Of a stretch of DNA of 48,467 bases, positions 2 to 30,124 are shown one piece after another. Origin of the DNA: an uncultured bacterium. Lineage in GTDB: Bacteria; Actinomycetota; Actinomycetes; S36-B12. Location: NCBI GenBank assembly GCA_903909555.1, contig CAIVWG010000240.1, positions 1 to 48,467 of the forward strand. Direction: 5' to 3'. Positions within the stretch are counted from its first letter, which is position 1; each line of letters opens with the position of its first letter. The notes under the pieces were generated by a model. The model saw only the letters and a list, made by a program, of their open reading frames with translations, did not search any database and was not told the DNA's origin. The position numbers and the translations under genes are program-made.

Positions 2-1402
2 GGCCTCGTCGACCGCGCCTTCATCGAGGAGCGCTGCGAGCCGGCACTGTACGCCGAGTGGGAGGAGTTCATCCGGCTTCCGGAGAACAGCCCCGAGGCC
101 GTCGAGGCGATGTGCGGGGTCCCCGCCGAGCAGATCCGGGGGGCGGCGCGGCTGTACGCCGCAGGACCGAACTCCGGCATCTACTACGGCCTGGGCGTCA
201 CCGAGCACAGCCAGGGATCGACGATGGTCATGGCGATGGCGAACCTCGCCATGGCGACCGGCAACATCGGCCGCGAGGGCGTCGGCGTCAACCCGCTGCG
301 CGGCCAGAACAACGTGCAGGGCTCCTGCGACATGGGCTCCTTCCCGCATGAGTTCTCCGGCTACCGGCACGTGTCGGACACCGTGGTGCGCGAGCAGTTC
401 GAGGCCCTCTGGGGGACCGAGTTGCAGTCCGAGCCCGGCATGCGCATCCCCAATATGTTCGACGCGGCGGTGACCGGCCAGTTCAAGGCTCTGTTCGTCC
501 AGGGTGAGGATGTCGCCCAGTCGGACCCCAACACCCACCACGTGCAGAAGGCCCTGGAGTCGATGGAGTTCGTGATCGTCCAGGACCTCTTCCTCAATGA
601 GACGGCGCGCTACGCCCACGTCTTCCTGCCGGGGACGTCGTTCCTGGAGAAGGACGGCACCTTCACCAATGCCGAGCGCCGGATCAACCGCGTGCGCCCC
701 GTCATGAGGCCGCAGACCGGCAAGCAGGAGTGGCAGGTGACCTGCGAGCTCAGCACCGCGCTGGGCTACCCCATGCACTACGACTCGGCCAGCCAGATCA
801 TGGACGAGATCGCCGCGCTGACGCCGACGTTCGCGGGGGTGTCGTTCGCGCTGCTCGACGAGGTGGGCAGCGTCCAGTGGCCCTGCAACGCCGAGCATCC
901 GCTGGGCACCCCGATCATGCACGTGGGTCGCTTCGTCCGCGGCGACGGCGCCTTCCAGGTCACCCCGTACGTCCCGACCGAGGAGCGCAGCACGCGTCGG
1001 TATCCCCTTCTGCTCACCACCGGTCGGATCCTCAGCCAGTACAACGTCGGCGCCCAGACCCGCCGTACGCCGAACGTCCTCTGGCATGACGAGGACGTGC
1101 TCGACATCCACGAGTCCGATGCCGAGGCGCGCGGCATCACCGACGGGACGTGGGTGACGCTGGCCAGCCGCGTGGGATCGACGATCATGCGGGCGCAGAT
1201 CTCCGACCGCGTGCCGCCCGGCGTCGTGTACACGACGTTCCACTACCCCGGCAGCGGCGCCAATGTCGTCACGACCGAGTACTCCGACTGGGCGACCAAC
1301 TGTCCGGAGTACAAGGTGACCGCGGTCGAGGTCACCCCGAGCCTGCGCGGCCCGGAGCACATGGAGGAGACCGCGGGGGTCGACGCGATGACCGTCGGAT
1401 AA
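2..1402 (+). CDS. fdhF: Molybdopterin formate dehydrogenase alpha subunit (FdsA/FdhF type), 5' end outside window
   Basis: Frame open from position 2. Motifs YGLGVTEHSQG, PLRGQNNVQGSCDMG, EKDGTFTNAERR, LTTGRILSQYNVGAQTRRT and TNCPEYKVTAV. Followed by fdsD. Confidence 0.95.
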   Translation, partial: GLVDRAFIEERCEPALYAEWEEFIRLPENSPEAVEAMCGVPAEQIRGAARLYAAGPNSGIYYGLGVTEHSQGSTMVMAMANLAMATGNIGREGVGVNPLRGQNNVQGSCDMGSFPHEFSGYRHVSDTVVREQFEALWGTELQSEPGMRIPNMFDAAVTGQFKALFVQGEDVAQSDPNTHHVQKALESMEFVIVQDLFLNETARYAHVFLPGTSFLEKDGTFTNAERRINRVRPVMRPQTGKQEWQVTCELSTALGYPMHYDSASQIMDEIAALTPTFAGVSFALLDEVGSVQWPCNAEHPLGTPIMHVGRFVRGDGAFQVTPYVPTEERSTRRYPLLLTTGRILSQYNVGAQTRRTPNVLWHDEDVLDIHESDAEARGITDGTWVTLASRVGSTIMRAQISDRVPPGVVYTTFHYPGSGANVVTTEYSDWATNCPEYKVTAVEVTPSLRGPEHMEETAGVDAMTVG

Positions 1403-1404
1403 CC

Positions 1405-1623
1405 GTGCGCATCGAGACCCTCACCCGCATGGGCCAGCAGATCGCCCGCAACAACCAGGCGCTGCCGCCCGACCAGGCAGCCGCGCGCATCGCCGGTCAC
1501 CTGAGGTCGTTCTGGACCCCCGCGATGATCCGCGAACTCGAGGCCTACGCCGCCTTCAGCCCGGAGACGCTGGATCCCAACCTCCTGGCTGCTCTCGACC
1601 TGCTCGGCGCCGAGGCCCGCTAG
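1405..1623 (+). CDS. fdsD: Formate dehydrogenase delta subunit (FdsD)
   Basis: GTG 2 nt after the fdh stop. 72 aa with LTRMGQQIARN...IAGHLRSFWTPAMIREL, typical of FdsD. Confidence 0.85.
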   Translation: MRIETLTRMGQQIARNNQALPPDQAAARIAGHLRSFWTPAMIRELEAYAAFSPETLDPNLLAALDLLGAEAR

Positions 1624-3200: not shown

Positions 3201-3272
3201 GCCTCCGTAGCTCAGTGGTAGAGCAACCGCCTTGTAAGCGGTAGGTCGTCAGTTCAATCCTGACCGGGGGCT
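3201..3272 (+). tRNA. tRNA-Thr(TGT)
   Basis: Acceptor GCCTCCG/CGGGGGC, D arm GCTCAGTGGTAGAGC, anticodon arm ACCGC-CTTGTAA-GCGGT, T arm GTCAG-TTCAATC-CTGAC. CCA not encoded. Confidence 0.97.
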
Positions 3273-3328
3273 CTCGAACAGCCACGGCCTCGCGGCGTGC
3301 GTCGCATGGCTCACTCCAGGAGGTCAGG

Positions 3329-4255
3329 GTGCCGGTCGTGACGATGGCGGAGCAGGGCCCGATCGGTGCGGGTGCCGCCCGGGCGGTAGCGCTCGGCGGC
3401 GGTGGCGAGTGGTTCGTCGCGTGGATGGCCGGGTACGCGAGTGGGCTCCTCGAGGCGGGTGTCGATCTCGCTCAGGCCGACGTGACCATCGGCACCAGCG
3501 CGGGATCCCTGGTCGGGGCTGCGATCCAGGGCGGACGCCTTGCCCCCTTCACGGACGTCCTTCGGCAACTGGGGGCCAACCCCGCTGCGGCGAACAAGGA
3601 GCTCAACATCAGCGTGGGCGCTCCGTCGCAGGCGCGCGCACGCACGGTCATGGGTCAGACGGATGCCATCACGCCCGCCACCCTCCAGGAGATCGGGCGC
3701 GCGGCGATGGCCGCGCGCAATGCGCCGGACGAGAGCTACGTCGCATCAGTGCAGGGGGTCCTGGGGCTCACCGACTGGCCCGCCGGGCACTACACGACCT
3801 CGACCGACTGCTACACGGGCGAGTCGCTCATCGCCGGCGGCGATTCGGGGGTCACCATCGCTCAGGCGTGCGCGGCCAGCTCGTCCTTGCCGGGTGTCAA
3901 CGGGCCGACCTGGCTCGGCGATCGCCTGTGCATGGACGGCGGGGTGAGCTCGTCGAGCACGCACGCCGACATGCTGGCCGGAGCGACCTTCGTCCTCATC
4001 ATCGCCATGTTCGACTTCAAGGCGAATCCACCGAAGCACGTCAACCCGTCCTTCGGAATCGCCGAAAGGGTCAACCCCGGCACCGCTGAGCGGGAGGCAG
4101 CCGCCCTCCGGGAGCAGGGCAGCAGCGTGCACGTCACCATCGCCAACCCCGATCCGACGACCGACTTCATGGACGCCGCCACCATCGGTCCTGCCATCGC
4201 TGATGGAGTATCGCGTGGCAAGGCAGACGCGGAGGCCATCGCCGCCCTATGGTGA
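3329..4255 (+). CDS. Patatin-like phospholipase
   Basis: Gly-rich LGGGG, GTSAG nucleophile motif, DGG motif; AGGAGG RBS before GTG. Confidence 0.9.
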   Translation: MPVVTMAEQGPIGAGAARAVALGGGGEWFVAWMAGYASGLLEAGVDLAQADVTIGTSAGSLVGAAIQGGRLAPFTDVLRQLGANPAAANKELNISVGAPSQARARTVMGQTDAITPATLQEIGRAAMAARNAPDESYVASVQGVLGLTDWPAGHYTTSTDCYTGESLIAGGDSGVTIAQACAASSSLPGVNGPTWLGDRLCMDGGVSSSSTHADMLAGATFVLIIAMFDFKANPPKHVNPSFGIAERVNPGTAEREAAALREQGSSVHVTIANPDPTTDFMDAATIGPAIADGVSRGKADAEAIAALW

Positions 4256-4261
4256 GGGCCC

Positions 4262-5371
4262 ATGTCGACGACTCCCGCCCCGACTGCCGCCCCGCCCCGT
4301 CAGGCCATGCCGATGAAGAAGCGGCTGATCCTGGCCAGCGTCATCATCGTGCTCACGCTCGTTCCCGCTTTGATCATGGTGGCGGTTGCCTATGTGGCCA
4401 CCGGTCAAGTGCAGGCGGCGGCCACCTGGGCCTCGATTCCTGCCATCGCCGGTATTGCTGCGGCCGCAACAGCCGGTCGCCGGTTCGCGGTCGTCGCGGC
4501 CATCGCCACCGGGATGATCGCCTCTGTGTGCATCGTGGCGGGTGCATCACCGGTCTCCGGCGCGGGCCTCATGGGCATCATGGCGATCGCGGTCGGGCAA
4601 CTGTCGAAGTTCGGCCTGCATAAGTCGGCGCTGCTCTATCCGGTCATGATGTCGTGGGCGGTGATCGACCCGCCGACGTGGGGAGGCCAGTCGACGGTTG
4701 ATCGCTTCGACGAGTCCTACCTGCTGTGGATGTCCGCCATCTTCTTCGTGGGAGCGCTCATCCCCGCACTGGTGCTGCCTTTCCTCATGCGCAAGCGGCC
4801 GCTGCCTCCTCGCAAGGCGTACTCGCGTGACGATGCGCTGCCCTACACGGTCATGATCACCGTGCTGGTCACCCTGTCGACCTTCGTTGTCCTGTCCAAT
4901 CCCAAGTGGTACGGCGGCGCCTTCATCATCGCCGTGATCCTCATCATGGCGCCCATCGGCGATACCCAGACACTCAAGCCGACCATCATGCGCATCCTCG
5001 GGACCGTGGTCGGCTCCCTCCTGCTCGTCGTGCTGCTCTCGCAGGTCGATTCCCTCGCCGTGATCTACCTCGTGGGCCTGATCTTCATCGTCATCGCCCT
5101 CATTGCGCGCTTCGGCGTCCACGTGTGGATCTATTACGTCTTCATGGTGCCGGCAACCGCGGCGCTGAACGCCACGACGTTCTCGCAGGTGGGTCAGCTC
5201 GGCGAGCAGCGCCTCGGTGACAACATCATCGGCGGCATACTGGTGATCATCGCGTCGGCGATCGCGATCGGCTACTCCCACTGGGCGCAGCGCCATGGCC
5301 ACGCCCACGATGATGACCCGGAGGCTCAGCGCGTCCAGGAGGCCACGGACACGGTCGCCACGCCCGCCTAG
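4262..5371 (+). CDS. FUSC-like integral membrane protein
   Basis: About 10 hydrophobic segments; C-terminal RILGTVVG and RLGDNIIG motifs of the FUSC family. Confidence 0.7.
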   Translation: MSTTPAPTAAPPRQAMPMKKRLILASVIIVLTLVPALIMVAVAYVATGQVQAAATWASIPAIAGIAAAATAGRRFAVVAAIATGMIASVCIVAGASPVSGAGLMGIMAIAVGQLSKFGLHKSALLYPVMMSWAVIDPPTWGGQSTVDRFDESYLLWMSAIFFVGALIPALVLPFLMRKRPLPPRKAYSRDDALPYTVMITVLVTLSTFVVLSNPKWYGGAFIIAVILIMAPIGDTQTLKPTIMRILGTVVGSLLLVVLLSQVDSLAVIYLVGLIFIVIALIARFGVHVWIYYVFMVPATAALNATTFSQVGQLGEQRLGDNIIGGILVIIASAIAIGYSHWAQRHGHAHDDDPEAQRVQEATDTVATPA

Positions 5372-5378
5372 GCGGGAC

Positions 5379-5831
5379 TCAGGCGAGCGTGCAGGGCCAG
5401 GTGACCGTCGTGCGCGGCTGGGGCACCTCGGGGCCATCCAGGTAGGTCTCCCAGGGTGCGCCCGTCGGGCGGTGGCCCGATGTGGCGAACCACTGCTCGA
5501 TCGCCTGGTACGCCCCTGCGACATCCGAGTAGGCACCCACATGCGTCGTCACGGCCGCCGTGCCGCCCGGGAGCGTGATGGTGTGCACGTCGCCGTCGAG
5601 GGCAAGGTCGGGCGGGCAGGGGAAGCCTGCCTCGACACGGAATCTTCCCCCGACCATGTCGTAGCGGGCGAAGGGCTTGCCGTCGACGGCGACGGCCTCG
5701 CGTGCCAGCGTGCCGAGGACCTGCTCGAAGGCGCGTCCCAGGAAGGGACCCACTTCCTCCATACCGCAGGTGCCGGAGACGACGGCGGCGTGCTGGGACT
5801 CGATCTCAACAGTGTGGATGTCGTAGGCCAT
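5379..5831 (-). CDS. GyrI-like small-molecule-binding domain protein
   Basis: PFARY, LPGGTAAVTTHVGAYSDVAGAY, PWETYLDGP. ATG 5831 is 1 nt after the fhs stop. Confidence 0.85.
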   Translation of the reverse strand: MAYDIHTVEIESQHAAVVSGTCGMEEVGPFLGRAFEQVLGTLAREAVAVDGKPFARYDMVGGRFRVEAGFPCPPDLALDGDVHTITLPGGTAAVTTHVGAYSDVAGAYQAIEQWFATSGHRPTGAPWETYLDGPEVPQPRTTVTWPCTLA

Positions 5832-5832
5832 C

Positions 5833-7500
5833 TCAGAAGAGTCCCACAACCGCACCGTCGACGAGGTCGATCCGCTCGGAGGCGGGTGCCTTGGGGAGGC
5901 CCGGCATCGTCATGATGTCCCCGCACACCATGACCACGAACTCCGCGCCGGCGGAGAGCCGGACTTCGCGGATGTCGAGGACGTGCCCGGTCGGCGCCGC
6001 GCGCAGGGCGGCATCGGTGGAGAAGGAGTACTGCGTCTTCGCCACGCAGACCGGCAGGTGGCCGTAGCCCATGGCCTCGAGGTCCCGGATCTGCTGGCGG
6101 ACCTTGGAGCTGGCCGTCACCTCGGCGGCGCGGTAGACGCGGGTGGCGATGGCCGTCACCTTCTCCCACAGCGAGGCGTCGTCGGGGTAGACGAAGGTCA
6201 GCTCGCGGGGCGTCTCACAGAGTTCGACCACCTTGCGCGCGAGCTCCTCGGTCCCGGCTCCTCCATCGGCCCAGTGCGTGGCGAGCACGACGTCGGCCCC
6301 GGCGTCGCCGACGAGTCGTCGGAGCAGGTCGATCTCCGCATCGGTGTCGGAGGTAAAGCGGTTGATCGACACGACAGGCTTGATGCCGTACACGTCGCGG
6401 ACGTTTTCGATGTGGCGTCGGAGATTGACGATCCCCTTCTCGAGGGCCTCGAGATCCTCTTCGGTGATGGTCTTGAGATCAGCGCCGCCGTGGTACTTCA
6501 GGGCGCGGATCGTGGCCACGATGACGGCGACCGACGGCCGCAGGCCTGACTTCCGGCACTTGATGTCGACGAACTTCTCCGCGCCCAGGTCTGCCCCGAA
6601 GCCAGCCTCGGTCACGACGTAGTCGGCGAGCTTGAGCGCTCCACGAGTCGCCACGACGGTGTTGCAGCCGTGGGCGATGTTGGCGAAGGGCCCACCGTGC
6701 ACGAAGGCGGGCGTGTGCTCGAGGGTCTGGACGAGATTGGGATTGAAGGCGTCCTTGAGGAGTACTGTCATCGCGCCGTCGGCATCGAGATCGCGAGCCC
6801 GGATGGGCTCCTTGGCGGTGTTGTAGGCGACGATGATGTTGCCCAGTCGCTCCTTGAGGTCGTCCAGCGACGTGGCGAGGCAGAAGATCGCCATGATCTC
6901 CGAGGCCACCACGATGTCGAACCCGTCCTCGCGGGGGTAGCCGTTGCCTGGGCCGCCGAGGCCGACGACGATGTCGCGCAGGGCACGGTCATTCATGTCG
7001 AGCACGCGCTTCCAGGCGATGCGGCGTACGTCGATCCCGAGGCGGTTGCCGTGGTGGACGTGGTTGTCGATCAGGGCGGCGAGCAGGTTGTTGGCCAGGC
7101 CGATGGCGCTGAAGTCGCCGGTGAAGTGCAGGTTGATGTCCTCCATGGGGACCACCTGGGCGTAGCCGCCTCCCGCGGCGCCGCCCTTCATCCCGAACAC
7201 CGGCCCGAGGGACGGCTCCCGCAGGCAGATCATCGCGTTCTTCCCGATGCGGCGCAGCCCGTCGCCGAGGCCGACCGTGGTCGTGGTCTTGCCTTCGCCG
7301 GCGGGGGTCGGGGAGATGGCCGTGACGAGGATGAGCTTGGCGTCGGGCCGCTCGGGCAGCGAGTCGAGGTAGGCGTTGGAGACCTTGGCCTTGTAGTGGC
7401 CGTAGGGCTCCAGGGCCTCCTCCGGGATGCCGAGCGATGCGGCGACGGATGAGATGCGATCCATCTGCGTCGCCTGCGCGATCTCGATGTCAGTGGGCAT
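5833..7500 (-). CDS. fhs: Formate--tetrahydrofolate ligase
   Basis: [72 protein letters not shown]. Confidence 0.98.
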
Positions 7501-7508
7501 GGTCTTCC

Positions 7509-8468
7509 TCAGGACTTGGCGGCGCGGACGGCGTCGACGAGGGCGGGCATCACCGTGGCGGCGTCGCCGATGACGGCGTAGTCGGCGAAGGACATGATGG
7601 TGGCGTCAGGATCGGTGTTGATGGCGATCATCGTCTTGGCGTTCTTGCACCCGGCGATGTGCTGGGTCGCCCCGCTGATCCCGACGGCGATGTAGAGGTC
7701 GGGCGCGACCTTGGTGCCCGTCTGGCCGACCTGCTCCGCGTGCGGTCGCCAGCCGGCGGAGGTGACCACCCGGGAGCAGCCGACCGCTCCGCCGAGCAGG
7801 GCCGCGAGTTCCTCGAGGGGGCCGAAGCCGCCCTCGCCCACTCCACGGCCGCCGGACACGACGACCTTGGCCTCGGCGAGGCTCACGCCGCCTCCTCCGC
7901 CGCCCACCCGGTCCACGATGCGCACGGCGAGGTCCGCGTCGGCGAGCTCGGGGGCGAACTCCACGACCGCGGCGGGTCCCGAGCCCGTGACGGGATCGAC
8001 GGCGAAGGCATGCAGGGCGGTCGACGCGATGAGCATGGGTGCGTGCACGCGAGCGTCTTCCAGGACGTTGCCGGCCCAGCGATTGCGCGTCACGTGCGAG
8101 ACCCCGTCGCCGAGCGTGATCGCCGTGCAGTCGGCGGCGAAGGGCTCGTCGACGATCGCGGACGCGTGCGCCAGGACCTCGTTGCCACGCGGGGAGCCCA
8201 CGGCGAGGACCGCTGCGGGTGACATCTGGCGTGCCATCTGGGCCACCGCGCGCCCGGTCGCCATGGGGGCGTAGTCGGTGATGCGCGGATCGACGGCGAC
8301 GTGAGTGGTGGTGACCCCGAACTCTCCCAGGCGAGCGGCTGCGGTGACCGCGTCAGCTCCCACCATGACGGCCTGCACGTCGGTGTCGAGGCCACGTGCG
8401 GCCGCGACGGCCTGCAGGGACAGTTCGTCCAGGACTCCGCGATCGTGATCGACGTAGACGAGGATCAT
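7509..8468 (-). CDS. etfA: Electron transfer flavoprotein alpha subunit
   Basis: [45 protein letters not shown]. Confidence 0.95.
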
Positions 8469-20601: not shown

Positions 20602-20619
20602 GGTCCTTCCCTTCGCGAG

Positions 20620-20636: not shown

Positions 20637-20653
20637 ACGTGTGCCAAAAAGCG

Positions 20654-20663
20654 AGTGTAGGAT
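20654..20663. promoter_or_regulatory. Overlapping divergent -10 elements: TACACT on - (20654-20659) and TAGGAT on + (20658-20663)
   Basis: Both match the actinobacterial TANNNT consensus and point toward the two divergent operons. Confidence 0.45.
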
Positions 20664-20716
20664 CCCCTCCCAGGTCGGTCAAGGCGGACGGTCCGGTCAC
20701 GACGGAGGGAAACCCC

Positions 20717-22156
20717 ATGTTCGTCAACAATCTCCCGCGCTACGACATCCTGTCCGAGGACTCGATGGCGGTCCTCGACCGCGGCTGGCGGCGGATCGTC
20801 TCGGAACTCGGCGTGGAGTTCATGAAGCCCGAGGCCGTCGAGCTGTTCAAGGCCGCCGGGATGCGCACCGAGGGCGACAAGGTCTTCTTCGACCCCGACT
20901 TCGTGCTCGAGCAGGTGGCCAAGGCGCCGCGCGAGTTCGACATCCAGGCGCGCAACCCGGACAACACCGTGCACATCGGCGGCAACCACATGGTCTTCTC
21001 CAGCGTGTACGGGCCTCCCTTCGTGCGCCAGGGCGACGTACGTCGTGATGCCACGATGGAGGACTACCGCAACTTCGCGAAGCTCGCCCAGTCCTTCAGT
21101 GCCATCGACAGCGTGGGCGGCGTCGTCTGCGAGCCCAGCGATGCGCCGCTCGACTCGCGCCACCTCGACATGCTCTACGCCGCGATGACGCTGACCGACA
21201 AGTTCTACATGGGCAATGTCGTGAGCGGCACGCGTGCCCTCGACACCATCCGGATGAGCGAGATCCTCTTCGGCAGCCGCGAGGCGATCGAGGAGACACC
21301 CGTGTGCATCTCCCTCATCAACTGCAACTCGCCGCTGCGCTGGGATGACCGGATGCTCGAGGCGCAGTTCGAGTACGCCCACGCCATGCAGCCGGTGGTG
21401 CTGACGCCCTTCCTCCTCATGGGCGCCATGTCCCCGGTGTCGATCCCCTCGACGCTGGCGCAGCAGATGGCCGAGACGCTCACGGGGATCGCGCTCACCC
21501 AGCTCATCCGGCCGGGGGCGCCCGTGGTCTTCGGATCGTTCCTCTCCAACATCGACATGCAGTCCGGCTCCCCGCAGTTCGGCACCCCGGAGTCGGCGAT
21601 CGGGCTGCTGTGCACCGGGCAGATCGCCCGCCACATCGGGCTCCCCTTCCGCACCGGCGGCGGGCTCAACTCGTCCCAGACGCCGGATGCGCAAGCGGCG
21701 TTCGAGTCCCTCATGACGATGCTGCCGACGTTCCTGGCCGGCACGAACTTCGTCATGCACACCGCGGGCTGGCTCGAGGGCGGCCTCGTCGCGGGCTACG
21801 AGAAGTACGTGCTCGACGTCCAGGCCCTGGAGTCACTCGAGAGGGAGTTCACCCCCGTGGACTTCACCGACGAGACGCTGGCCTTCGGAGCTCATGAGGA
21901 GGTGGGTGCGGGCGGGCACTTCCTGGGAGCCGAGCACACCATGGAGCGCTTCCGCACCTGCTTCTACCGGCCCTTCCTGTGGAACTCCGACAACTTCGAG
22001 CGCTGGACCCGCCTGGGCGCCCGCGACGCCGTCGAGCGGGCCCGCGAGGTGTACGAGAAGAAGCTCGAGGAGTACGAGCCCCCGCCGCTGGACGAGGCGA
22101 TCCGCGAGGAGCTCGAGGAGTACGTCGTCCGGCGCAGGGCCGAACTCGGGGACTAG
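20717..22156 (+). CDS. MttB-superfamily methyltransferase, non-pyrrolysine (probable glycine betaine:corrinoid methyltransferase, MtgB-like)
   Basis: INCNSPLRWD, GAMSPVS, GTPE, PDAQAAFE, HTAGWLEGGL, GGHFLGAEHT. No in-frame TAG. Substrate inferred from betAB/ABC context. Confidence 0.9.
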   Translation: MFVNNLPRYDILSEDSMAVLDRGWRRIVSELGVEFMKPEAVELFKAAGMRTEGDKVFFDPDFVLEQVAKAPREFDIQARNPDNTVHIGGNHMVFSSVYGPPFVRQGDVRRDATMEDYRNFAKLAQSFSAIDSVGGVVCEPSDAPLDSRHLDMLYAAMTLTDKFYMGNVVSGTRALDTIRMSEILFGSREAIEETPVCISLINCNSPLRWDDRMLEAQFEYAHAMQPVVLTPFLLMGAMSPVSIPSTLAQQMAETLTGIALTQLIRPGAPVVFGSFLSNIDMQSGSPQFGTPESAIGLLCTGQIARHIGLPFRTGGGLNSSQTPDAQAAFESLMTMLPTFLAGTNFVMHTAGWLEGGLVAGYEKYVLDVQALESLEREFTPVDFTDETLAFGAHEEVGAGGHFLGAEHTMERFRTCFYRPFLWNSDNFERWTRLGARDAVERAREVYEKKLEEYEPPPLDEAIREELEEYVVRRRAELGD

Positions 22157-22184
22157 GCTGCGGCCCTTCGGAAGGAGGCCCCTC

Positions 22185-22730
22185 ATGATCCCTCGAGTGC
22201 GTCCCGCCCTCACTGTCCTGGCCGCCGCCGGGCTGCTGCTCGCCGTTCCTGCGCCTGGCCAGGCGGACGAGCGAGCCCCGCGCACCAAGACCCTCGTCTT
22301 CGAGATCAGCCTGACCCCGGTGTCCCAGGACTCGCATTCGCTGCCTGGCGGCGTGATCTACGGCCAGGGCACCCTCGAGGGCACCACCTCATGGGGCCGC
22401 CGCGCGGCCACGGTGGAGTGGCAGTGCAGCCGTGCACTCGTCGACGGCGCCGGGCCCGCGAACGACCTCGTGACGATCCGCCGCTCCTCCGACGGTGCCG
22501 TTCTCGCGCTCGCGGTCACCGGCTGGATCACCCCCCGCGACGGCGCGCCGTACCGCCTGGACGGGAGCGTCGAGGTCCTCGGCGGCAAGGGGCGCTACCG
22601 GGGCGCCACGGGCAACGGCACGGTGACGGGCCTCCCCGGTCGCGCCACCCTCACCGTCACCGTCGTGCAGCCGCACGCCGCTCCCCGCGATGCGGCCGCT
22701 CCGCGCGCCTGGGGGGACGTGGGCTGCTGA
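22185..22730 (+). CDS. Secreted protein with dirigent/allene-oxide-cyclase-like beta-barrel motif
   Basis: AAGGAGG RBS, N-terminal signal peptide, VLGGKGRYRGATGNG motif. Confidence 0.6.
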   Translation: MIPRVRPALTVLAAAGLLLAVPAPGQADERAPRTKTLVFEISLTPVSQDSHSLPGGVIYGQGTLEGTTSWGRRAATVEWQCSRALVDGAGPANDLVTIRRSSDGAVLALAVTGWITPRDGAPYRLDGSVEVLGGKGRYRGATGNGTVTGLPGRATLTVTVVQPHAAPRDAAAPRAWGDVGC

Positions 22731-22770
22731 GCCGGCCCGGGGCGGCCACGACGGGTCGTAGAGTGTGCGC

Positions 22771-24450
22771 ATGCCGAGGGGTTACGACTACATCATCGTG
22801 GGCGGCGGATCCGCCGGATGCGCCCTCGCGGCCCGGCTGACCGAGGACCCGTCCACCCAGGTCCTGCTCCTCGAGGCGGGACGTCCCGACTACGCCTTCG
22901 ACGTCTACGTCCACATGCCTGCCGCGCTCACCTTCCCCATCGGCAACCCCCTCTACGACTGGATGTACGCGTCGCAGCCGGAGCCGCACATGAACGGCCG
23001 GCGCATCAATCACGGCCGCGGCAAGATCCTCGGGGGCTCGAGTTCCATCAACGGGATGATCTTCCAGCGCGGCAACCCGATGGACTACGAGCGCTGGGCC
23101 GCGGATCCCGGGATGGAGTCCTGGGATTACGCCCACTGCCTGCCCTACTTCAAGAAGATGGAGGACTGCCGCGCCGGCGCCGACGAGTGGCGGGGCAAGG
23201 ACGGCCCGCTCATCCTCGAGCGGGGCGAGGTGCGCAATCCGCTGTTCTCGGCGTTCTTCGCGGCGGTCCAGGAGGCCGGGCACGAGATCACCTCCGACGT
23301 CAACGGCTACAAGCAGGAAGGCTTCGCGGCGTTCGACCGCAACGTCCACCACGGGCGCCGCTACTCGGCCACCAAGGCCTATCTCCGCGACGCCCTCGCA
23401 CGGCCCAACCTCACCCTCAAGACGCGGGCGCATGTCACCCGGATCACCGTCGATACCTCCTCAGACACCCCTCGGGCGACCGGCGTCGAGGTGTCGCTCG
23501 CCGGGAAGCGCCCCGTCAGCGTGCGCGGGTCCGAGGTGATCCTCTGCGGAGGGGCGTTCAACTCCCCGCAGCTGCTGCAACTGTCCGGCATCGGCAACGC
23601 CGATGACCTTCGCTCCGTGGGCGTCGACCCCGTCCATCACCTTCCCGGGGTCGGCGAGAACCTCCAGGACCACCTCGAGGTGTACGTCCAGCACGCGTGC
23701 ACGCAGCCGGTGTCGCTCAACCCGAACCTCCAACTGTGGCGCCGTCCTGTCATCGGCGCGCAGTGGCTGTTCCTCCGGTCAGGGCCCGGAGCGTCAAACC
23801 ACTTCGAGGCAGGTGGCTTCATTCGCAGCAACGACGAGGTCGACTACCCCAACCTCATGTACCACTTCCTGCCGATCGCCGTGCGGTACGACGGCACCGC
23901 GCCAGCGGGCGGCCATGGCTACCAGGTGCACATCGGGCCCATGTACTCCGACGCGCGCGGGAGCGTGTGGATCACCGGCCCGGACCCCTACGCCCCGCCG
24001 GCCTTCCGCTTCAACTACCTGTCGACCGAGCAGGACCGCCGCGAGTGGGTGGAGGCGATCGCCAAGACCCGCGAGATCCTCGCGCAGGCGGCCTTCGCTC
24101 CCTACAGCGGCGGAGAGATCTCACCGGGGCCCGACGTGCAGTCCGACGAGGCCATCCTCGACTGGGTGCGCCGCGACGGGGAGACGGCGTACCACCCCTC
24201 CTGCACCTGCCGGATGGGCGTCGACGACATGTCCGTCGTCGACCCGCTCACCATGCGCGTGCACGGGACGCAGGGCCTGCGTGTCGTGGACGCGTCGGTC
24301 ATGCCCTACATCACCAACGCCAACCTCTACGCCCCCACCATGATGATCGCCGAGAAGGCCGCCGACCTCATCGCCGGCAACACCCCGCTGGCGCCGGAGC
24401 ACGCCCCCTTCTACCGCCATCGCAAGGAGGCCGCGGCCGCCCATGGCTGA
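22771..24450 (+). CDS. betA: Choline dehydrogenase
   Basis: [64 protein letters not shown] 22771 lies 6 nt after TAGAGT. Confidence 0.95.
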
Positions 24451-25942
24451 CCTCTTCATCGGCGGCCACTGGGTCGCTGCCGCCGACGGGGGAACCCGTG
24501 AGATCCGCTGCCCCGCGGATGGCCAGCCGGTGCGTCGCGTCGACGAGGCGACGTCGGCGGACACCGTGCGCGCTGTCGAGGCGGCGCGGGAGTCCTTCGA
24601 TGACGGCCGCTGGCGCTCCGTGCCCTTCACCGAGCGCGCCCAGTTCCTCGAGCGCGTCGCCGACCTTCTCGAGCGCGACGTCGATGCCATCGCGCGCGCC
24701 GAGTCCCTCGATACGGGCAAGCGCCTGGTGGAGGCGGAGTACGACGTGGCCGACGTGGTGCGGTCATTCCGCTACTTCGCGGGCCTCGCCGGCGGCGATG
24801 CCGTGGGCGGCCGAGTGGTGGATGCCGGCAATCCTCAGGTGCGCTCGCGCATCGACTACGAGCCGGTCGGCGTGTGCGGGCTGATCACGCCCTGGAACTA
24901 CCCGCTCCTCCAGGCGTCGTGGAAGGTCGCCCCCGCGCTCGCGGCGGGCAACTCCTTCGTCCTCAAGCCCAGCGAACTCACCCCGAGCACGACCATCCAC
25001 CTGGTGCGGCTGCTCGAGGAAGCCGGGCTCCCTCCCGGCGTCGCCAACCTCGTGCTCGGCGCCGGTGCGGTCGCGGGAGCCCCGTTGGCGACCCACCCGG
25101 GAGTCGACATGGTGTCCTTCACCGGCGGCCTGGCGACCGGTCGCCGGATCATGGCCGATGCCGCGGGCACGGTGAAGAAGATCGCCCTCGAGCTCGGCGG
25201 CAAGAATCCCAACATCGTGTTCGCGGACGCGGACCTCGACGCCGCCATCGACAACGCGGTCACCGCGGTGTTCCTGCATTCCGGGCAGGTGTGCTCGGCA
25301 GGAGCGCGGCTCCTCGTGGAGGAGTCCGTCCACGACCGCGTGGTCGATGGCATCGTCGCCAAGGCCGAGCGGATCAGGCTGGGAGGCCCCTTCGACCCCC
25401 GCGCCGAGACGGGCCCCCTGATCTCCGCGGGGCACCGGGAGAAGGTGGAGGCCTACGTCGCCGCCGCCCTGGCCGAGGGCGCGGTCCTGCGATGCGGCGG
25501 ATCGGCCCCCGATCCGGCCGAACACCCCTCGCTCGCGGCGGGCTTTTACTACCGTCCCACTGTGCTCGACCGCTGCCGCACGTCCATGTCCTGCGTCCAG
25601 GACGAGTCCTTCGGCCCCGTGCTCACCGTGGAGACGTTCGCGACGGAGGACGAGGCCGTGCGCCTGGGCAATGACACGACCTACGGCCTCGCGGGAGCGG
25701 TGTGGACCTCGGACGCCGGGCGCGGGGAGCGCGTGGCGGCAGCGCTCCGCCACGGCACGATCTGGATCAACGACTACCACCCCTACCTTCCGCAGGCGGA
25801 GTGGGGAGGATTCAAGCAGTCGGGCGTCGGACGGGAATTGGGCCCGACGGGCCTCCACGAGTACCTCGAGGCCAAGCACGTGTACCGCAACCTGGCGCCC
25901 GCGCCCAGCGGGTGGTTCGACGGGGAGGGGGCCGGTTCATGA
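24443..25942 (+). CDS. betB: Betaine aldehyde dehydrogenase
   Basis: [46 protein letters not shown]. Overlaps the betA stop. Confidence 0.88.
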
Positions 25943-27027
25943 GTGCCGTCGACGCCGTGAGCACCTCGCCGGCGATCTCGGTGCGCGGGCTGTGGAAGGT
26001 CTTCGGGCCCAAGGCGGACCAGGTGGTCGGGACGCCCTACGCCAACCTCAGCCGCGACGACCTGCTCAAGGAGACCGGCTGCACCGCCGCCGTGCGCGAC
26101 GTGACGTTCGACGTCGCCGAGGGCGAAGTCTTCGTCGTCATGGGGCTGTCCGGTTCGGGGAAGTCCACCCTCGTGCGGTGCCTCACACGGCTCATCGACT
26201 CGACGGCCGGCGAGGTGCTCATCGAGGGGGAGGACATCCTCAAGGCGTCGCCGTCCCAGCTCCGCCACCTGCGGCGGACCGAGTTCTCCATGGTGTTCCA
26301 GCACTTCGGCTTGCTTCCGCACCGCAAGGTGATCGACAACATCGCCTACCCCCTCGAGATCCAGGGGGTGAAGAAGGACGTGCGCTACGCCCGCGCCGAG
26401 GAAGTGATCCAACTGGTCGGGCTGCAGGGCTACGGCAACGCCTACCCGGAGCAACTCTCGGGCGGCATGCAGCAGCGCGTGGGCCTGGCGAGGGCCCTCA
26501 CCGTCAACCCCGAGGTCATGTTCCTCGACGAGCCGTTCAGTGCACTCGACCCGCTGATCCGCCGCGACATGCAGGCCGAGGTGATGCGCCTGCACCGCGA
26601 GCTCGGCAAGACCATGGTGTTCATCACCCATGACCTCGCCGAGGCCATGAAGCTGGGCGACCGCATCGCGATCATGCGCGACGGCGCCATCGTGCAGATG
26701 GGCACCGCGAAGGATCTCGTGATGAATCCGGCGGACGGCTACGTCGAGAACTTCCTACGGGACATCCCCAAGAGCCATGTCCTCACCCTCGACGTGGTCG
26801 CTCGGCCGCTGCGCAGCGATGAGACCGCGAGCAGCGTGACCCTGCCCGGTTCGACGATCATCCGCGACGCCACCGGCGCGATCATCAGCGCTCACGGCCC
26901 CGTCCGCGTCATCGAGGGCGGCCGGGAGATCGGCGTCGTGAGCAGCGAGGACGTGCTCGCCCTCATCGCGGGCGACCACGCCCCGGACGGGGTGGCGGAG
27001 CCGCAGCCGTCGGGCCGGGGCGACTAG
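25939..27027 (+). CDS. Glycine betaine/choline ABC transporter ATP-binding subunit (ProV/OpuAA-like)
   Basis: [52 protein letters not shown] overlap. Confidence 0.93.
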
Positions 27028-27030: not shown

Positions 27031-28986
27031 GTGGACGTGCGAGCCGCCCTGCGACTGCGCTGGGTGCAGGCGCTCATCGTGCTCGTCACGTGGATCGTGC
27101 TGGCCACGCTCCTCAAGGGAGTGCAGACCCAGGAGCTGTCCACCGCGACGGACTCGCCCTTCACCGCGATGATGCGCGATATCGCGGCGTCGATCCGGGG
27201 CAACAGGACGGAGAGCTTCCTCTTCGTCTACGTGTTCAACCCCATCAGGACCTTCATCGCCGGCTTCATCGAGTTCATCATGGGCGTGATCTCAGTCCCT
27301 GCCGAGGGCAACCTGATCCCGCTGCTGGGGTGGTTCGGCACGTGGGTGCTCATCGGCTTCATCGTCTATGCGACGTCGAACCTGCGCACCGCGGTCTTCA
27401 GCATGTTCATGCTCCTGCTCTGCGGGATGCTCGGCATGTGGCTCATCACCATGGACACCCTCGCCATGACGATCGGGGCCGTGGTTCTCTCGCTCATCGT
27501 GGCCCTGCCCCTGGGCGTCTGGGCGGGGCTCAGCGACCGGGTGATGTCCGTGCTCCGGCCCTGGCTCGACCTCGCGCAGGTGCTGCCCACGCTGGTCTAC
27601 CTCGCCCCGCTCGCCCTGGTCTTCCTCATCGGGATCGCCTCGGCGACCATCGCCACGATGATCTACTCGATCCCCATCTGCATCCGCATCACCGCCCACG
27701 CGATCAAGTCGCTCAAGCAGGGCCCGATCGAGGCCGCCGTGTCCAGCGGATCCACCCGGTGGCAGGTGCTCACCAAGGTGCAGTTGCCCATGGCCAAGCG
27801 CACCATCATCCTCGCCGTGAACCAGACCACCCTGGCCGCGCTGTCCTTCGTGGTCATCGCCGCCCTCATCGGCGCGCCCGGGCTGGGGAAGCCGGTGGTC
27901 GAGGCGCTCACGATCCGCAATGTGGGCGATGGTGTGGTCGCGGGGCTGGCGGTGGTGTTCCTCGCCATCATGCTCGACCGCTCGACGACCGCGGCGGTCA
28001 TGCGCGAGGAGCAGGGGTTCGCGGCCTCGGATGAGCAGAAGGCCCGCCGCCGGATCGGCCTGGCGATCGGGGCCGTCATCACGGTGGTGGCCATCTACCT
28101 ATCGCGGTACGTCCTGTGGTTCGCGGTGTTCCCCGAGCAGCTGAACTTCGGCGAGCAGGTCGGTGCGGTCGCCGACGCGATCGAGGAGTGGATCACCAGC
28201 AACCTGGACTTCCTCACCGTCGGCATCTCCCAGTGGCTCACCGTGTGGGGCCTGAACCCGCTCGAGGGAGTCCTCGCGAACTCGCCCTGGTGGCTCACGC
28301 TCATCGCCATCACCCTGCTCGCCTTCATCCTCGCCGGTCGCACGGTGGGCATCCTGGTGTTCTTCCTGCTGGCGCTGGTCATGGCGACGGGCCTGTGGTA
28401 CGACACCATGGTCACCCTCGCGATGACGCTGATCGCGACGGCGTTCGTCGTGCTCCTCGGCATCATCCTCGGCGTCTGGGCCGGGCGCAGCGAGCGCGTC
28501 GAGCGCGTCTTCAAGCCGTTCCTCGACGCCGGACAGACCATGCCGGCGTTCGTCTATCTGGTGCCCGTGCTCGCGCTCTTTGGGCCGACGCGCTTCGCCG
28601 CCATCGTGCTGGGCGTCGTCTACGCGGCTCCGGTCGTGATCCGCATCGTCGCCGACGGAGTGCGCGGCGTGCCCAAGGAGTCCGTGGAAGCCGCCATCTC
28701 CACGGGGTCCACGACCATGCAGGTCATCACCAAGGTCCAGTTGCCCGCGTCGCGACGCTCGATCCTGCTCGGCGCCAACCAGGGGCTCATCTTCGTCCTC
28801 GCCGTCGTGGTCATCGGGGGGTTCGTCGGCGCGGGCGGCCTGGGATACCTCGTCATCGTGGGGCAGTCCAAGCCCGAGCTCGCCGGCAAGGGCCTCGCCG
28901 CGGGCATCGCCATCGTGCTCCTGGGGATCATCCTCGACCGAATTGCCCAAGGCAGGCCCCAGAAGCAGGCCTCGATCGGCCACTAG
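27031..28986 (+). CDS. Glycine betaine/choline ABC permease with two fused ProW-like domains
   Basis: Two EAA loops (IEAAVSSGSTRWQVLTKVQLP and VEAAISTGSTTMQVITKVQLP); 651 aa, hydrophobic. Confidence 0.92.
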   Translation: MDVRAALRLRWVQALIVLVTWIVLATLLKGVQTQELSTATDSPFTAMMRDIAASIRGNRTESFLFVYVFNPIRTFIAGFIEFIMGVISVPAEGNLIPLLGWFGTWVLIGFIVYATSNLRTAVFSMFMLLLCGMLGMWLITMDTLAMTIGAVVLSLIVALPLGVWAGLSDRVMSVLRPWLDLAQVLPTLVYLAPLALVFLIGIASATIATMIYSIPICIRITAHAIKSLKQGPIEAAVSSGSTRWQVLTKVQLPMAKRTIILAVNQTTLAALSFVVIAALIGAPGLGKPVVEALTIRNVGDGVVAGLAVVFLAIMLDRSTTAAVMREEQGFAASDEQKARRRIGLAIGAVITVVAIYLSRYVLWFAVFPEQLNFGEQVGAVADAIEEWITSNLDFLTVGISQWLTVWGLNPLEGVLANSPWWLTLIAITLLAFILAGRTVGILVFFLLALVMATGLWYDTMVTLAMTLIATAFVVLLGIILGVWAGRSERVERVFKPFLDAGQTMPAFVYLVPVLALFGPTRFAAIVLGVVYAAPVVIRIVADGVRGVPKESVEAAISTGSTTMQVITKVQLPASRRSILLGANQGLIFVLAVVVIGGFVGAGGLGYLVIVGQSKPELAGKGLAAGIAIVLLGIILDRIAQGRPQKQASIGH

Positions 28987-29083
28987 GAGGGCCCCCGAGA
29001 CCGATCCGTTACCCGCATCTGCCCCGATCGGTCGCTGGCCCGACCTACGATGGCGACGACATCAGACCCTTCCGGGAGGAAGA

Positions 29084-30124
29084 ATGAAGCGAGTAGGTAC
29101 GGGCGCGACACTCACGATCGCGCTGGCCACTGTCGGCCTGGCCCTGGCGGCCTGCGGCGGCGGCGTCAACGAGGCGAGCTCATCCTCGGCGGCACCAGCG
29201 CCCGCGGAGTCCAGCGCGGCGCCCGCGGAGTCCAGTGCTCCGGCGGAAACGTCGGCGGCGCCCGCACCGGCGGACTGCGGTGACTGGGGGATCGCCATGC
29301 ACGCGTGGGTGGGCTACACCGCCTCCGCGCAGGTCCTCACCAACGTGGCCGAGGACGCACTCGGCTGCAAGATCACCCAGACCCAGCTCGACGAGGCCGG
29401 CGTCACCTACGACGCCATGGAGGCCGGCTCGGTCGACGTCATCATCGAGGACTGGGGTGGCGGCCGCTGGCAGGAGTGGGTTGACCGCGGCGCCATCGAG
29501 GAGGTCGGCTACAACGGCAACATCGGCCTCATCGGCATGTTCGTCCCGCAGTGGGTCTGCGACGAGAATCCGGAGATCACCGACGGGACCAAGCTCAACG
29601 ACTACGTCGACCTGTTCAAGACGCCGGAGTCGGGCGACAAGGGTGCCTGGCTCGAGGGCCCGCCCGGGTACACCACGATCGGCGAGAAGATCATCGAGGC
29701 GTACGACCTCAACTACAAGATCATCAACACCGGTTCCGAGCCGGCTCTCATCGAGGCCTTCACCAAGGGCAGCGAGGAGAAGGTCCCGGTGCTCGGTTAC
29801 TTCTACGAGCCGCAGAACTTCCTCGCGAAGGTCCCGCTGTGCCGGATCAACTTCCCGGCCAACGACTGGACCGATGCCGCGAAGGCCAGCGGTCTCACCG
29901 ACTACCCGGAGACGCCGCTCGTGAAGCTGGCCAGCGTCAAGCTCATGGACTCGGGCAGCCCGTTCGCGACGCTGCTCACCAACTTCGAGTGGACCAACGA
30001 GGACCAGAACCAGGTCGCGCTCGATATCGAGAACGGCATGGATCCGCGTGAGGCCGCCCAGAAGTGGATCGACGCCCATCCGGACGTCGTCGCCGCGTGG
30101 CTCGAGGGCACCGGCGTCTCCTGA
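29084..30124 (+). CDS. Glycine betaine/choline ABC substrate-binding lipoprotein (ProX/OpuAC-like)
   Basis: GGGAGG RBS, lipobox LAAC, Ala/Pro/Ser linker, WVGY..SA, IIEDW, YFYEPQ, AAQKWIDAHPD. Confidence 0.9.
   Translation: MKRVGTGATLTIALATVGLALAACGGGVNEASSSSAAPAPAESSAAPAESSAPAETSAAPAPADCGDWGIAMHAWVGYTASAQVLTNVAEDALGCKITQTQLDEAGVTYDAMEAGSVDVIIEDWGGGRWQEWVDRGAIEEVGYNGNIGLIGMFVPQWVCDENPEITDGTKLNDYVDLFKTPESGDKGAWLEGPPGYTTIGEKIIEAYDLNYKIINTGSEPALIEAFTKGSEEKVPVLGYFYEPQNFLAKVPLCRINFPANDWTDAAKASGLTDYPETPLVKLASVKLMDSGSPFATLLTNFEWTNEDQNQVALDIENGMDPREAAQKWIDAHPDVVAAWLEGTGVS
29198..29235 (+). repeat. 21-bp-period direct repeat encoding the APAESSA linker
   Basis: GCGCCCGCGGAGTCCAG at 29198 and 29219. 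Confidence 0.8.

Follow-up and report, generated by a model that had tools for sequence, protein, structure and literature searches.

Homology and synteny point to aerobic, cobalamin-dependent choline and glycine betaine catabolism encoded in a conserved neighbourhood of Actinomycetota

The 48,467-base contig C240 of a freshwater actinobacterial metagenome-assembled genome (MAG; 2.79 Mb in 277 contigs, 88.6% complete, 2.4% contamination, 70.4% GC) is analysed here in its entirety and is referred to as the window. It encodes an MttB-family methyltransferase close to genes for a corrinoid protein and its reactivation, a two-subunit methylenetetrahydrofolate reductase, choline uptake and oxidation, dimethylglycine (DMG) demethylation and formate metabolism. 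Based on homology and synteny, we put the probability at about 0.7 that this neighbourhood, conserved among actinobacteria, encodes an aerobic, cobalamin-dependent route for breaking down choline and glycine betaine. An earlier note, made from the sequence alone, had placed an importer, betA, betB, a corrinoid module, MetV-MetF, a DMG dehydrogenase-EtfBA set, Fhs and FdsA/FdsD in one region; Pfam and NCBIfam searches recovered all of these genes, at about the positions proposed.

In the pathway that we envisage, a ProU/OpuA-type ATP-binding cassette (ABC) system would import choline or betaine, and BetA and BetB would convert choline to glycine betaine. The MttB enzyme, of the non-pyrrolysine (non-Pyl) type, would then transfer one betaine methyl group to a Co(I) corrinoid protein, yielding DMG, and MtgA would pass the methyl from the corrinoid to tetrahydrofolate (THF). 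Oxidised corrinoid would be re-reduced by a RACo-type activase acting with a DUF1638 protein. MetVF would take methyl-THF to methylene-THF, and a DMG dehydrogenase (DMGDH)-type enzyme would demethylate DMG onto THF. Housekeeping FolD would carry these one-carbon (C1) units to formyl-THF, the Fhs encoded in the operon would free formate, with ATP formed if it runs in reverse, and NAD-dependent FdsABGD would convert formate to CO2. We propose that IclR, acting at a conserved palindrome, controls the divergent mttB and corrinoid operons, and a GntR regulator would head the DMGDH-Etf-Fhs operon.

Genes were picked by third-position GC and then scanned against Pfam and NCBIfam, with starts refined later. 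The features that bear on the pathway are:

2-1402, plus strand: FdsA, C-terminal 466 amino acids (aa), truncated by the contig end (Pfam Molybdopterin and Molydop_binding; NCBIfam Fdh-alpha TIGR01591, 561.8 bits for this incomplete sequence)
1405-1623, plus strand: FdsD, a delta subunit characteristic of Fds-type, NAD-dependent formate dehydrogenase (PF11390, E 2.5e-15)
5833-7500, minus strand: Fhs, formate--tetrahydrofolate ligase (Pfam FTHFS, 880.6 bits; NCBIfam NF010030, 896.9 bits, cut-off 652)
7509-8468, minus strand: EtfA (Pfam ETF_alpha, ETF)
8465-9226, minus strand: EtfB (Pfam ETF)
9223-11730, minus strand: DMGDH/oxidase-type enzyme (Pfam DAO, FAO_M, GCV_T, GCV_T_C)
11760-12431, minus strand: GntR/FCD regulator (Pfam GntR, FCD)
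14390-14992, minus strand: DUF1638 protein (PF07796)
14970-16826, minus strand: RACo-type activase with N-terminal 2Fe-2S domain (Pfam Fer2, RACo_linker, Raco_middle, RACo_C_ter)
16823-17710, minus strand: MtgA/MtgD-type methylcorrinoid:tetrahydrofolate methyltransferase (Pfam Pterin_bind; NCBIfam NF005719, 311.6 bits, cut-off 259)
17718-18665, minus strand: MetF (Pfam MTHFR, PF02219, 75.4 bits)
18662-19111, minus strand: MetV, small Cys-rich subunit (PF12225, E 4.2e-25)
19121-19735, minus strand: corrinoid protein, MtgC-like (Pfam B12-binding_2, the cap, and B12-binding)
19774-20601, minus strand: IclR regulator, first in the minus-strand corrinoid operon and divergent from MttB (Pfam HTH_IclR, IclR_C)
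20620-20636, no strand: palindrome GTTCCA-N5-TGGAAC, candidate IclR operator, in the 115-nt intergenic region between IclR and MttB
20717-22156, plus strand: non-Pyl MttB-family methyltransferase, MtgB-like (Pfam MTTB, PF06253, 634.6 bits, profile positions 20-500)
22765-24450, plus strand: BetA, choline dehydrogenase of the GMC family (NF002550, 865.2 bits, cut-off 605; TIGR01810, 832.8 bits, cut-off 732.1)
24443-25942, plus strand: BetB-like betaine-aldehyde dehydrogenase (Pfam Aldedh; NCBIfam TIGR01804, 582.8 bits, cut-off of 668.6 not reached)
25939-27027, plus strand: ProV-type ABC ATPase of a betaine/proline/choline importer (TIGR01186, 346.3 bits, cut-off 326.6)
27031-28986, plus strand: fused double permease with two ProW/ChoW-like halves (BPD_transp_1 in two stretches)
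29084-30124, plus strand: OpuAC-type substrate-binding protein (Pfam OpuAC, E 5.4e-30)

Spacing within the minus-strand corrinoid operon is tight: from IclR through the corrinoid protein, MetV, MetF, MtgA and RACo to DUF1638, the junctions measure +38, +9, -4, +7, -4 and -23 nt, and MetV and MetF lie embedded among the corrinoid-methyltransferase genes (gaps +9, -4, +7 nt). From GntR through DMGDH, EtfB, EtfA and Fhs to a GyrI-like gene they are +29, -4, -4, +8 and +1 nt, and junction analysis finds DMGDH, EtfB, EtfA and Fhs to be translationally coupled. On the plus strand, BetA and BetB overlap by 8 nt, the start of the ProV-type ATPase overlaps the BetB stop by 4 nt, and FdsD has a GTG start 3 nt past the FdsA stop. 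The OpuAC gene has a GGGAGGAAGA ribosome-binding site ahead of its ATG, and the fused permease scores 334.1 bits as a choline permease and 304.8 bits as ProW, both under the NCBIfam cut-offs. The spacer between MttB and BetA is 608 nt long and is 67% identical at the DNA level in one related locus (L004); in other relatives, 5-83 nt or 1.2 kb separate the two genes.

With one genome scanned per species, at least 419 loci were found to encode an MttB relative, and the best 80 were compared. Apart from a few generic or odd labels these are all Actinomycetota, and they include Ca. Nanopelagicales, Nocardioides, Phycicoccus, Streptosporangiaceae, Acidimicrobiales and Geodermatophilaceae. Cultured strains that encode the core module and betAB are among them (Nocardioides sp. 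B-3, N. panacisoli JCM 16953, N. iriomotensis NBRC 105384 and Phycicoccus sonneratiae). The IclR gene adjoins MttB in 78 of the 80. Gene content was compared by tblastn of the window proteins (E <= 1e-10, query coverage above 50%) in the 46 of these loci that have full flanks of 10 kb on both sides. IclR and the corrinoid protein are near MttB in all 46, MtgA and RACo in 45 each and DUF1638 in 40, followed by BetA (33), the ABC ATPase (30) and BetB (29). Counts are lower for DMGDH (12), EtfB (10), MetF (8), MetV (7), EtfA (7) and Fhs (3), and Fds was found in none, flanks of this length being unable to reach either Fds or Fhs (13 kb away in the window).

Longer flanks, 40 kb around the gene, were fetched from five closer relatives (G001-G005; 77-82% MttB identity). 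In G002, G003 and G004, the window order is kept from Fhs to the transporter genes (the substrate-binding protein gene was not detected in G002), and Fhs directly follows EtfA. G001 keeps the order minus Fhs, and in G005 Fhs is on another contig; GntR heads the DMGDH string in G001-G004 too. The synteny comparison that the earlier note had suggested as a check finds the genes linked in relatives, the core in 40-46 of 46 loci and the full order in three of the five extended ones. Fds abuts the module at three junctions: 4 kb past Fhs in the window; after Fhs in G004, where GntR, DMGDH, EtfB, EtfA, Fhs, FdhD, FdsG, FdsB and FdsA form one co-directional string that is followed by a homocysteine S-methyltransferase gene; and after the transporter in G001, where fdsG starts 24 nt past the OpuAC gene and fdsB, fdsA and fdsD follow. 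Chance does not easily explain Fds at three junctions in three genomes.

Could the adjacency of Fhs and Fds be unrelated to methyl oxidation, and serve formate assimilation or detoxification, with betaine C1 units going to serine, glycine, purines or excreted formate? FolD is unlinked, PurU is present in the genome, Fhs and Fds are found within 10 kb in only 3 and 0 of the 46 loci, Fhs of G005 is on another contig, and the window Fds lies on the opposite strand beyond unrelated genes, all of which would suit such an explanation. However, flanks of 10 kb do not extend as far as Fhs, the extended flanks put Fhs after EtfA in three relatives, and Fds joins the module at three junctions, in G004 within a single co-directional string. 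We regard a function of Fhs and Fds apart from methyl oxidation as highly improbable. The approximately 30-kb supercluster described in the earlier note survives as a set of linked genes and not as an unbroken unit: eight unrelated genes and a tRNA interrupt it, FdsA is cut and FolD is encoded on another contig (C51). The genes that separate Fds from Fhs encode a cupin, an SDR protein, tRNA-Thr and patatin-like, FUSC-like and GyrI-like proteins.

The MttB gene has no in-frame stop (amber) codon, which assigns its product to the non-pyrrolysine branch of the MttB superfamily, and the protein scores 277.1 bits against the Pyl-MttB equivalog of NCBIfam, for which the cut-off is 525. No NCBIfam equivalog is matched above its cut-off. 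The closest solved structure is 4yyc, a putative trimethylamine methyltransferase (E 3e-135) that presumably comes from Sinorhizobium meliloti. Further matches are 2qne, a Desulfitobacterium hafniense protein aligned over nearly the full length (E 1.1e-117), 9yce, named 'Glycine betaine methyltransferase' (E 3.5e-117), and 7xcl, a Pyl-type trimethylamine methyltransferase (E 2.2e-37).

In D. hafniense MtgB, betaine is contacted by Y97, R312, H348 and F356, and the F356L variant has a Km of 734 mM in place of 0.88 mM (Picking et al. 2026, PMC13080624). We mapped these residues through the alignment to 2qne, in which the chain index equals the native number + 16 (checked at all four positions). 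The columns comprise 79 sequences, from the window and 78 related loci; two of the 80 loci were dropped (stop in the match; length/strand filter). The equivalents of Y97, R312 and H348 are Tyr, Arg and His in all 79 actinobacterial sequences. The F356 equivalent is Gly in all 79, a first point against our interpretation. Four residues upstream, all 79 have a Trp, and the stretch GWLEGG recurs in the 4yyc alignment; this invariant Trp may replace F356. Because the F356 equivalent is Gly, so that one defining residue of the D. hafniense subfamily fails, the protein is best described as MtgB-like and not as a strict MtgB orthologue. That glycine betaine is the presumed substrate follows chiefly from the gene neighbours, betAB to one side and the DMG enzyme to the other.

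An enzyme for a different quaternary amine (proline betaine, carnitine, gamma-butyrobetaine or another carboxylated betaine), with betAB only loosely related to it, would agree with the uniform Gly at the F356 position and with the lack of an equivalog match, and PMC13080624 describes superfamily members with other substrates that retain R312, and partly H348, without the aromatic pair. Yet Y97, R312 and H348 are all kept here, a glycine betaine methyltransferase is among the best named solved relatives (3.5e-117), and 4yyc has the same Gly and Trp. The gene is also directly upstream of betAB in 33 of the 46 loci and has a DMG-type dehydrogenase nearby in 12 of the 46, as expected if betaine is consumed and dimethylglycine produced. 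A substrate other than glycine betaine is, in our judgement, quite unlikely.

The three-component system around MttB is complete: a corrinoid protein, a pterin-binding methyltransferase and a RACo activase with DUF1638 accompany it, and MttB, corrinoid protein, MtgA and RACo are each single-copy in the MAG. The best NCBIfam match of the corrinoid protein is the glycine betaine-specific MtgC (NF047996, 199 bits, cut-off of 370 not reached), and that of RACo is AcsV-like (432.6 bits, cut-off of 800 not reached). By analogy with the systems of Price et al. (2018) and Mausz et al. (2025), DUF1638 would be a partner in RamA-like corrinoid reactivation. MetV has eight Cys, including a CxxCxxC motif, and overlaps MetF by 4 nt; no solved relative of MetV was found. 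MetF is weakly related to solved MetF structures (E 4e-6) and is the only PF02219 match in the MAG. Actinomycetota MetV proteins come in two size classes, a common one of ~ 220 aa (105-139 bits) and a short one of mostly ~ 144-180 aa frames (85-94 bits), and the window has the short form (149 aa, 88.8 bits). Short MetV genes lie 2-5 kb from MttB in three other genomes (G080, G178, G271), as in the window. MetV was rejected as a marker of the module, with PF12225 present in 100 of 301 genomes and in only 22 of 52 MttB-positive ones (E <= 1e-10).

For the second demethylation, the closest solved relative of the DMGDH-type enzyme is the Arthrobacter N,N-dimethylglycine oxidase 1pj5 (E 3.1e-148), with mammalian DMGDH at ~ 1e-94. 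What the earlier note called a 'DMG dehydrogenase' thus has an oxidase as its nearest solved structure. Given the FAD and THF-binding (GCV_T) domains, the expected form of the released C1 unit is methylene-THF, with no free formaldehyde. From the 4-nt gene overlaps, co-translated EtfBA is the probable electron acceptor of the enzyme; C212 encodes another EtfAB pair (37% identity). Four full-length paralogues of DMGDH/sarcosine-dehydrogenase type (27-32% identity) are found on C11, C93, C147 and C193 (loci L096-L099), one of which probably handles sarcosine. Genes beside the paralogues encode an Oxidored_FMN flavoprotein (C147), an amino-acid permease and a choline-kinase-like protein (C11), and a Rieske oxygenase alpha subunit (C193). 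The paralogues and their neighbours suggest a wider methylated-amine repertoire. The claim that no Rieske GbcAB oxygenase takes part holds for the window, which has no GbcA orthologue, and for the single Rieske oxygenase examined, that on C193 (143.9 bits against 670, from an open reading frame (ORF) fetched only in part); no genome-wide search for Rieske proteins or GbcA was made.

The genome has a THF-linked C1 set made up of FolD (C51), Fhs (window), PurU (C223) and Fds (window). Fhs is single-copy. FolD is not in the window, and its one copy in the MAG sits beside purN-like, malate dehydrogenase and isocitrate dehydrogenase genes; PurU scores 306.5 bits (cut-off 285.95). The full Fds set (FdsA, FdsB, FdsG) occurs in relatives G004 and G001. 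Three COX1 matches indicate haem-copper oxidases in the MAG, and acetyl-CoA synthase was not found in it at 88.6% completeness, so the methyl branch cannot serve acetogenesis. With MetVF inside the operon, DMGDH-Etf-Fhs coupling, the Fds junctions and no acetogenesis, context makes an oxidative methyl branch the most sensible reading. The earlier note had argued for this direction and had overlooked the anabolic one. ATP might be gained at Fhs, as the earlier note proposed.

Several further observations weigh against the pathway. Its substrate, direction and B12 dependence are all deduced from genes. MetF, the corrinoid protein, RACo and BetB all score under NCBIfam equivalog cut-offs. The nearest solved relative of DMGDH uses O2, the coupling to ETF is read from gene overlap only, and a canonical ETF:quinone oxidoreductase was not found in the 88.6% complete MAG. 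The unlinked FolD counts against the scheme, as does PurU, which would release formate without ATP, so that ATP conservation at Fhs is not forced. FdsB, FdsG and the N-terminal part of FdsA were not found in the MAG, and the window Fds is on the opposite strand to Fhs, with five protein genes and a tRNA between them. The cobinamide-phosphate synthase CbiB was found in none of 31 related genomes, and the pathway would thus depend on imported cobalamin. Finally, RNA evidence is negligible and supports no conclusion on expression or co-induction.

The corrinoid core may also have an anabolic function. The only homocysteine module in the MAG is a standalone 297-aa ORF on C159, which matches the MetH homocysteine domain (1q7m) at 2.4e-54 and true betaine-homocysteine methyltransferase at 1.5e-15; its best NCBIfam match is PRK07534 (286.9 bits, cut-off of 338 not reached). 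With the product of the homocysteine S-methyltransferase gene beside Fds in G004 (L084 749-1941, minus strand), it shares 63% identity. In the latter gene, an overlapping frame has a small ORF that matches PF13769 ('Virulence factor'). The MetH reactivation domain PF02965 has no match in the MAG (88.6% complete).

We compared 18 other species of the same genus (g1) with 12 genomes that represent nine further families within the order. MttB is present in 17 of the 18, the remaining genome being 68% complete, and all 18 have standalone homocysteine modules. MetH is matched in one of the 18, by a 72-aa contig-edge fragment that contains TGA. A single methylene-THF reductase match of the weak in-cluster type occurs in 14 of the 18, one more genome has two extra 20-bit fragments, three have a second copy of 152-188 bits, and a canonical, high-scoring MetF is present in none. 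The weak MetF is on the MttB contig, a few kb away, in 14 of the 17 genomes with both genes. In the other families, MetH (1164-1215 aa) is found in 11 of 12 genomes, canonical MetF (262-334 bits) in all 12 and MttB in two. None of the 31 genomes has canonical MetE, the best PF01717 match reaching 67 bits, with short MetE-like ORFs. CbiB (PF03186) is likewise found in none of the 31, ten of which are 98-100% complete, and most carry MetH or a corrinoid module despite this. The whole order looks dependent on external cobalamin, which, given that CbiB is in none of these genomes, is probably imported.

From this distribution, methionine synthesis in the genus probably also draws its methyl groups from the corrinoid/pterin/MetVF core, and the cluster may there be a stand-in for MetH and MetF. 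A stronger version, which we hold only tentatively and consider somewhat doubtful, is that this freshwater genus, apparently auxotrophic for B12, has lost canonical MetH and MetF, and that the cluster is the sole methionine-synthase core and methylene-THF reductase, working bidirectionally with the standalone homocysteine module, with both energy from betaine and methionine/S-adenosylmethionine (SAM) supply tied to imported cobalamin. Betaine methyls would then be oxidised to CO2, the MetVF electrons going to ETF or some different high-potential acceptor, and C1 units would be reduced for methionine. The g1 genomes are kin, so the pattern amounts to one or two evolutionary events, and the MAGs are incomplete.

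Taken further, the core might be mainly anabolic, a split cobalamin-dependent methionine synthase with the methylene-THF reductase of the cell, for which betaine is an extra methyl donor and energy use is secondary. The sole methylene-THF reductase in the cluster, the single-copy corrinoid and pterin proteins, the missing MetH activation domain, the standalone MetH-type homocysteine ORF and the contrast in MetH between g1 (1/18, a fragment) and the other families (11/12) are all consistent with this, and there is precedent in roseobacters. However, it leaves the tight linkage with catabolic betAB, importer, DMGDH-Etf, Fhs and Fds unexplained. In a phylum sample of 300 genomes, there is no association between MttB and MetH, the latter being present in 27 of 52 MttB-positive and 110 of 248 MttB-negative genomes (the 110 include G287, flagged as unpublished); 36 genomes have an MttB match above 500 bits, and 27 of these have MetH. 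The pattern within g1 reflects only one or two events, and some genomes have short MetE-like ORFs (<= 67 bits) or may be methionine auxotrophs. A methionine function is compatible with the catabolic role; as the sole role of the core, we consider it unlikely.

Is the proposed catabolic system new? Its kind is already known, from the anaerobe D. hafniense and, since 2025, from the aerobe Ruegeria pomeroyi. In the latter, the components are either needed for growth on betaine or induced by it: mutants established MtgC and MtgD, and proteomics implicated MtgB, RamA, DUF1638, MetF2 and THF-linked C1 oxidation; in other marine bacteria, genes for the methyltransferase, reactivation, C1 oxidation and later demethylation steps are co-located in operons, and Actinomycetota figure just as the source of 5% of mtgC reads (Mausz et al. 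2025, PMC12478193). Wiring of this type, which the earlier note took to be merely proposed for alphaproteobacteria, has thus been demonstrated. On the other hand, the note was aware of no characterised actinobacterial example, and our literature searches likewise found no description of such a system (the supplementary datasets of PMC12478193 were not covered). Peatland Actinobacteriota MAGs are reported to express non-Pyl and Pyl mttB homologues (PMC10805028).

The window resembles R. pomeroyi in its pfam06253 methyltransferase, separate corrinoid and pterin proteins, RamA/RACo-like activase, DUF1638 and dedicated methylene-THF reductase, and in DMG demethylation, THF-linked C1 oxidation to formate/CO2, an aerobic host and the frequent absence of MetH. 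Unlike in R. pomeroyi, the host is an actinobacterium, the reductase is a two-subunit MetVF with Cys-rich MetV, and the homocysteine module is unlinked; betAB, the ABC importer, DMGDH-EtfBA, Fhs and, in relatives, fdsGBAD share one neighbourhood. With MtgB/MtgC/MtgA of D. hafniense the system shares a non-Pyl TIM barrel of the MttB superfamily, the Y97/R312/H348 equivalents, a cognate corrinoid protein and an MtgA that forms methyl-THF. It differs in the Gly at the F356 equivalent with its upstream Trp, in the aerobic host, and in that methyl-THF is presumed to be oxidised and not fed to anaerobic respiration or acetogenesis. The protein 4yyc shares GWLEGG in the F356 region, although it is from a different phylum and is a PDB entry without assigned function.

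The three-part methionine synthase of Phaeobacter inhibens, the role of which was shown by mutant fitness (Price et al. 2018, PMC5764234), likewise has separate B12-, pterin- and homocysteine-binding proteins, no PF02965 domain, and RamA-like and DUF1638 proteins, whereas here the methionine role is deduced from gene presence and absence only. As in acetogen MetVF (Acetobacterium woodii), MetV (PF12225, Cys-rich) and MetF (PF02219) are adjacent, but the host here is aerobic, the direction presumably oxidative, MetV short, and RnfC2/Hdr partner genes are absent from the window. The DMGDH-type enzyme has the four-domain layout of Arthrobacter globiformis 1pj5, including the THF-binding GCV_T part; that enzyme uses O2, whereas the gene here is translationally coupled to etfBA, suggesting a dehydrogenase. 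The chloromethane (cmu) pathway of Methylobacterium (CmuAB, MetF2, FolD, PurU) is another aerobic corrinoid route from which methyl-THF proceeds to formate. It is proteobacterial, has a different substrate and first methyltransferase family, and uses PurU instead of Fhs. The actinobacterial version is distinct from known systems in its short MetVF-type reductase, in having the whole route to Fhs and Fds in one neighbourhood and, for genus g1, perhaps in replacing MetH and MetF.

The strict palindrome GTTCCA-N5-TGGAAC occurs once in the window; in 38 of 79 loci it is found in the 260 nt that precede MttB. Of 45 relaxed matches in 1.66 Mb of loci, 39 share this position, and a sigma-70-like promoter site is found just upstream of the palindrome (minus strand, 20682-20654). 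We propose the palindrome as a candidate IclR operator. An Rfam scan of the whole window at the gathering threshold found only a tRNA and no cobalamin, SAM, glycine or THF riboswitch; a terminator scan gave two sites against 3.4 expected and is uninformative on operon ends. One metatranscriptome (X19) has 6% of the sampled words of the stretch. A few short contigs from it on 5301-25300, with 0-1 differing letters, cover part of MtgA (17250-17395), the 3' end of MetF (17707-17960, reaching 4 nt into MtgA) and the junction of the corrinoid protein and IclR genes (19667-19817). RNA libraries may contain DNA, and contigs of this sort say nothing about expression level or about the genes sharing one transcript; a further run, X20, is only presumed to be RNA.

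Altogether, 20 runs from 12 studies contain all or some of the stretch; they are labelled as freshwater, aquatic, groundwater, pond, freshwater sediment and fish gut metagenomes, and a 7.8-kb core is found at 79-87% of sampled words in 18 DNA runs. Two DNA runs aligned to the window gave long pieces that differ little from it and keep its gene order; the best-matching run may be the source sample. Of 301 Actinomycetota genomes sampled, 53 encode an MttB-family protein, as do 37 of the 204 genera. If our interpretation is correct, cobalamin-dependent aerobic betaine demethylation reaches from marine Proteobacteria to Actinomycetota, and marker genes for betaine demethylation become available outside the ocean. 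Choline and betaine turnover in inland waters would also be tied to the supply of vitamin B12, because CbiB was found in none of the 31 related genomes. The compact operon and the DMGDH-Etf-Fhs-Fds string of relatives would provide a clean system for the study of ATP conservation at Fhs and of the electron acceptor of MetVF in an aerobe.

Other features lie within or between these operons:

3201-3273, plus strand: tRNA-Thr(TGT), from the Rfam scan, between the SDR gene and the patatin/FUSC/GyrI-like block
3329-5831: block of patatin-like, FUSC-like and GyrI-like genes
12543-14186, minus strand: LIP-like gene of 547 aa with a weak secretory-lipase domain, between DUF1638 and GntR
about 22186-22740, plus strand: small secreted-looking ORF of ~ 185 aa that begins like a signal peptide and lacks a Pfam match

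The LIP, patatin, FUSC, GyrI and cupin genes have no counterpart in the 80 related loci, and none was detected in the five extended relatives. The slot between GntR and DUF1638 contains different genes in G001 and G002, and the two aligned DNA runs differ from the window by several small indels (12471-12645) and by one 155-nt segment that has been replaced (14253-14409). We considered the LIP-like and patatin-like genes as choline-releasing lipases of the pathway and rejected this, as relatives lack counterparts; they are treated as insertions. The patatin/FUSC/GyrI block next to the tRNA gene looks like an insertion that split Fds from Fhs, since its protein genes are absent from the 80 loci and Fhs of G004 runs directly into the Fds operon.

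A genomic island was also rejected: cluster GC (0.674-0.706) is ordinary against a genome mean of 0.704. The 5th to 95th percentiles of 5-kb GC windows across the MAG are 0.678-0.731, and within the contig 1-30 kb is lower than 30-48 kb. What stands out is the GC-richer right flank (0.741). This flank (30177-48467) encodes a metallophosphoesterase, a sugar-nucleotide transferase, F420 genes (an FbiB-like ligase/nitroreductase fusion, CofD and a fused FbiC), WhiB, a large glycosyltransferase, DUF5719, DUF3499, phosphomannomutase, mannose-6-phosphate isomerase and LpqB, which are core actinobacterial genes.

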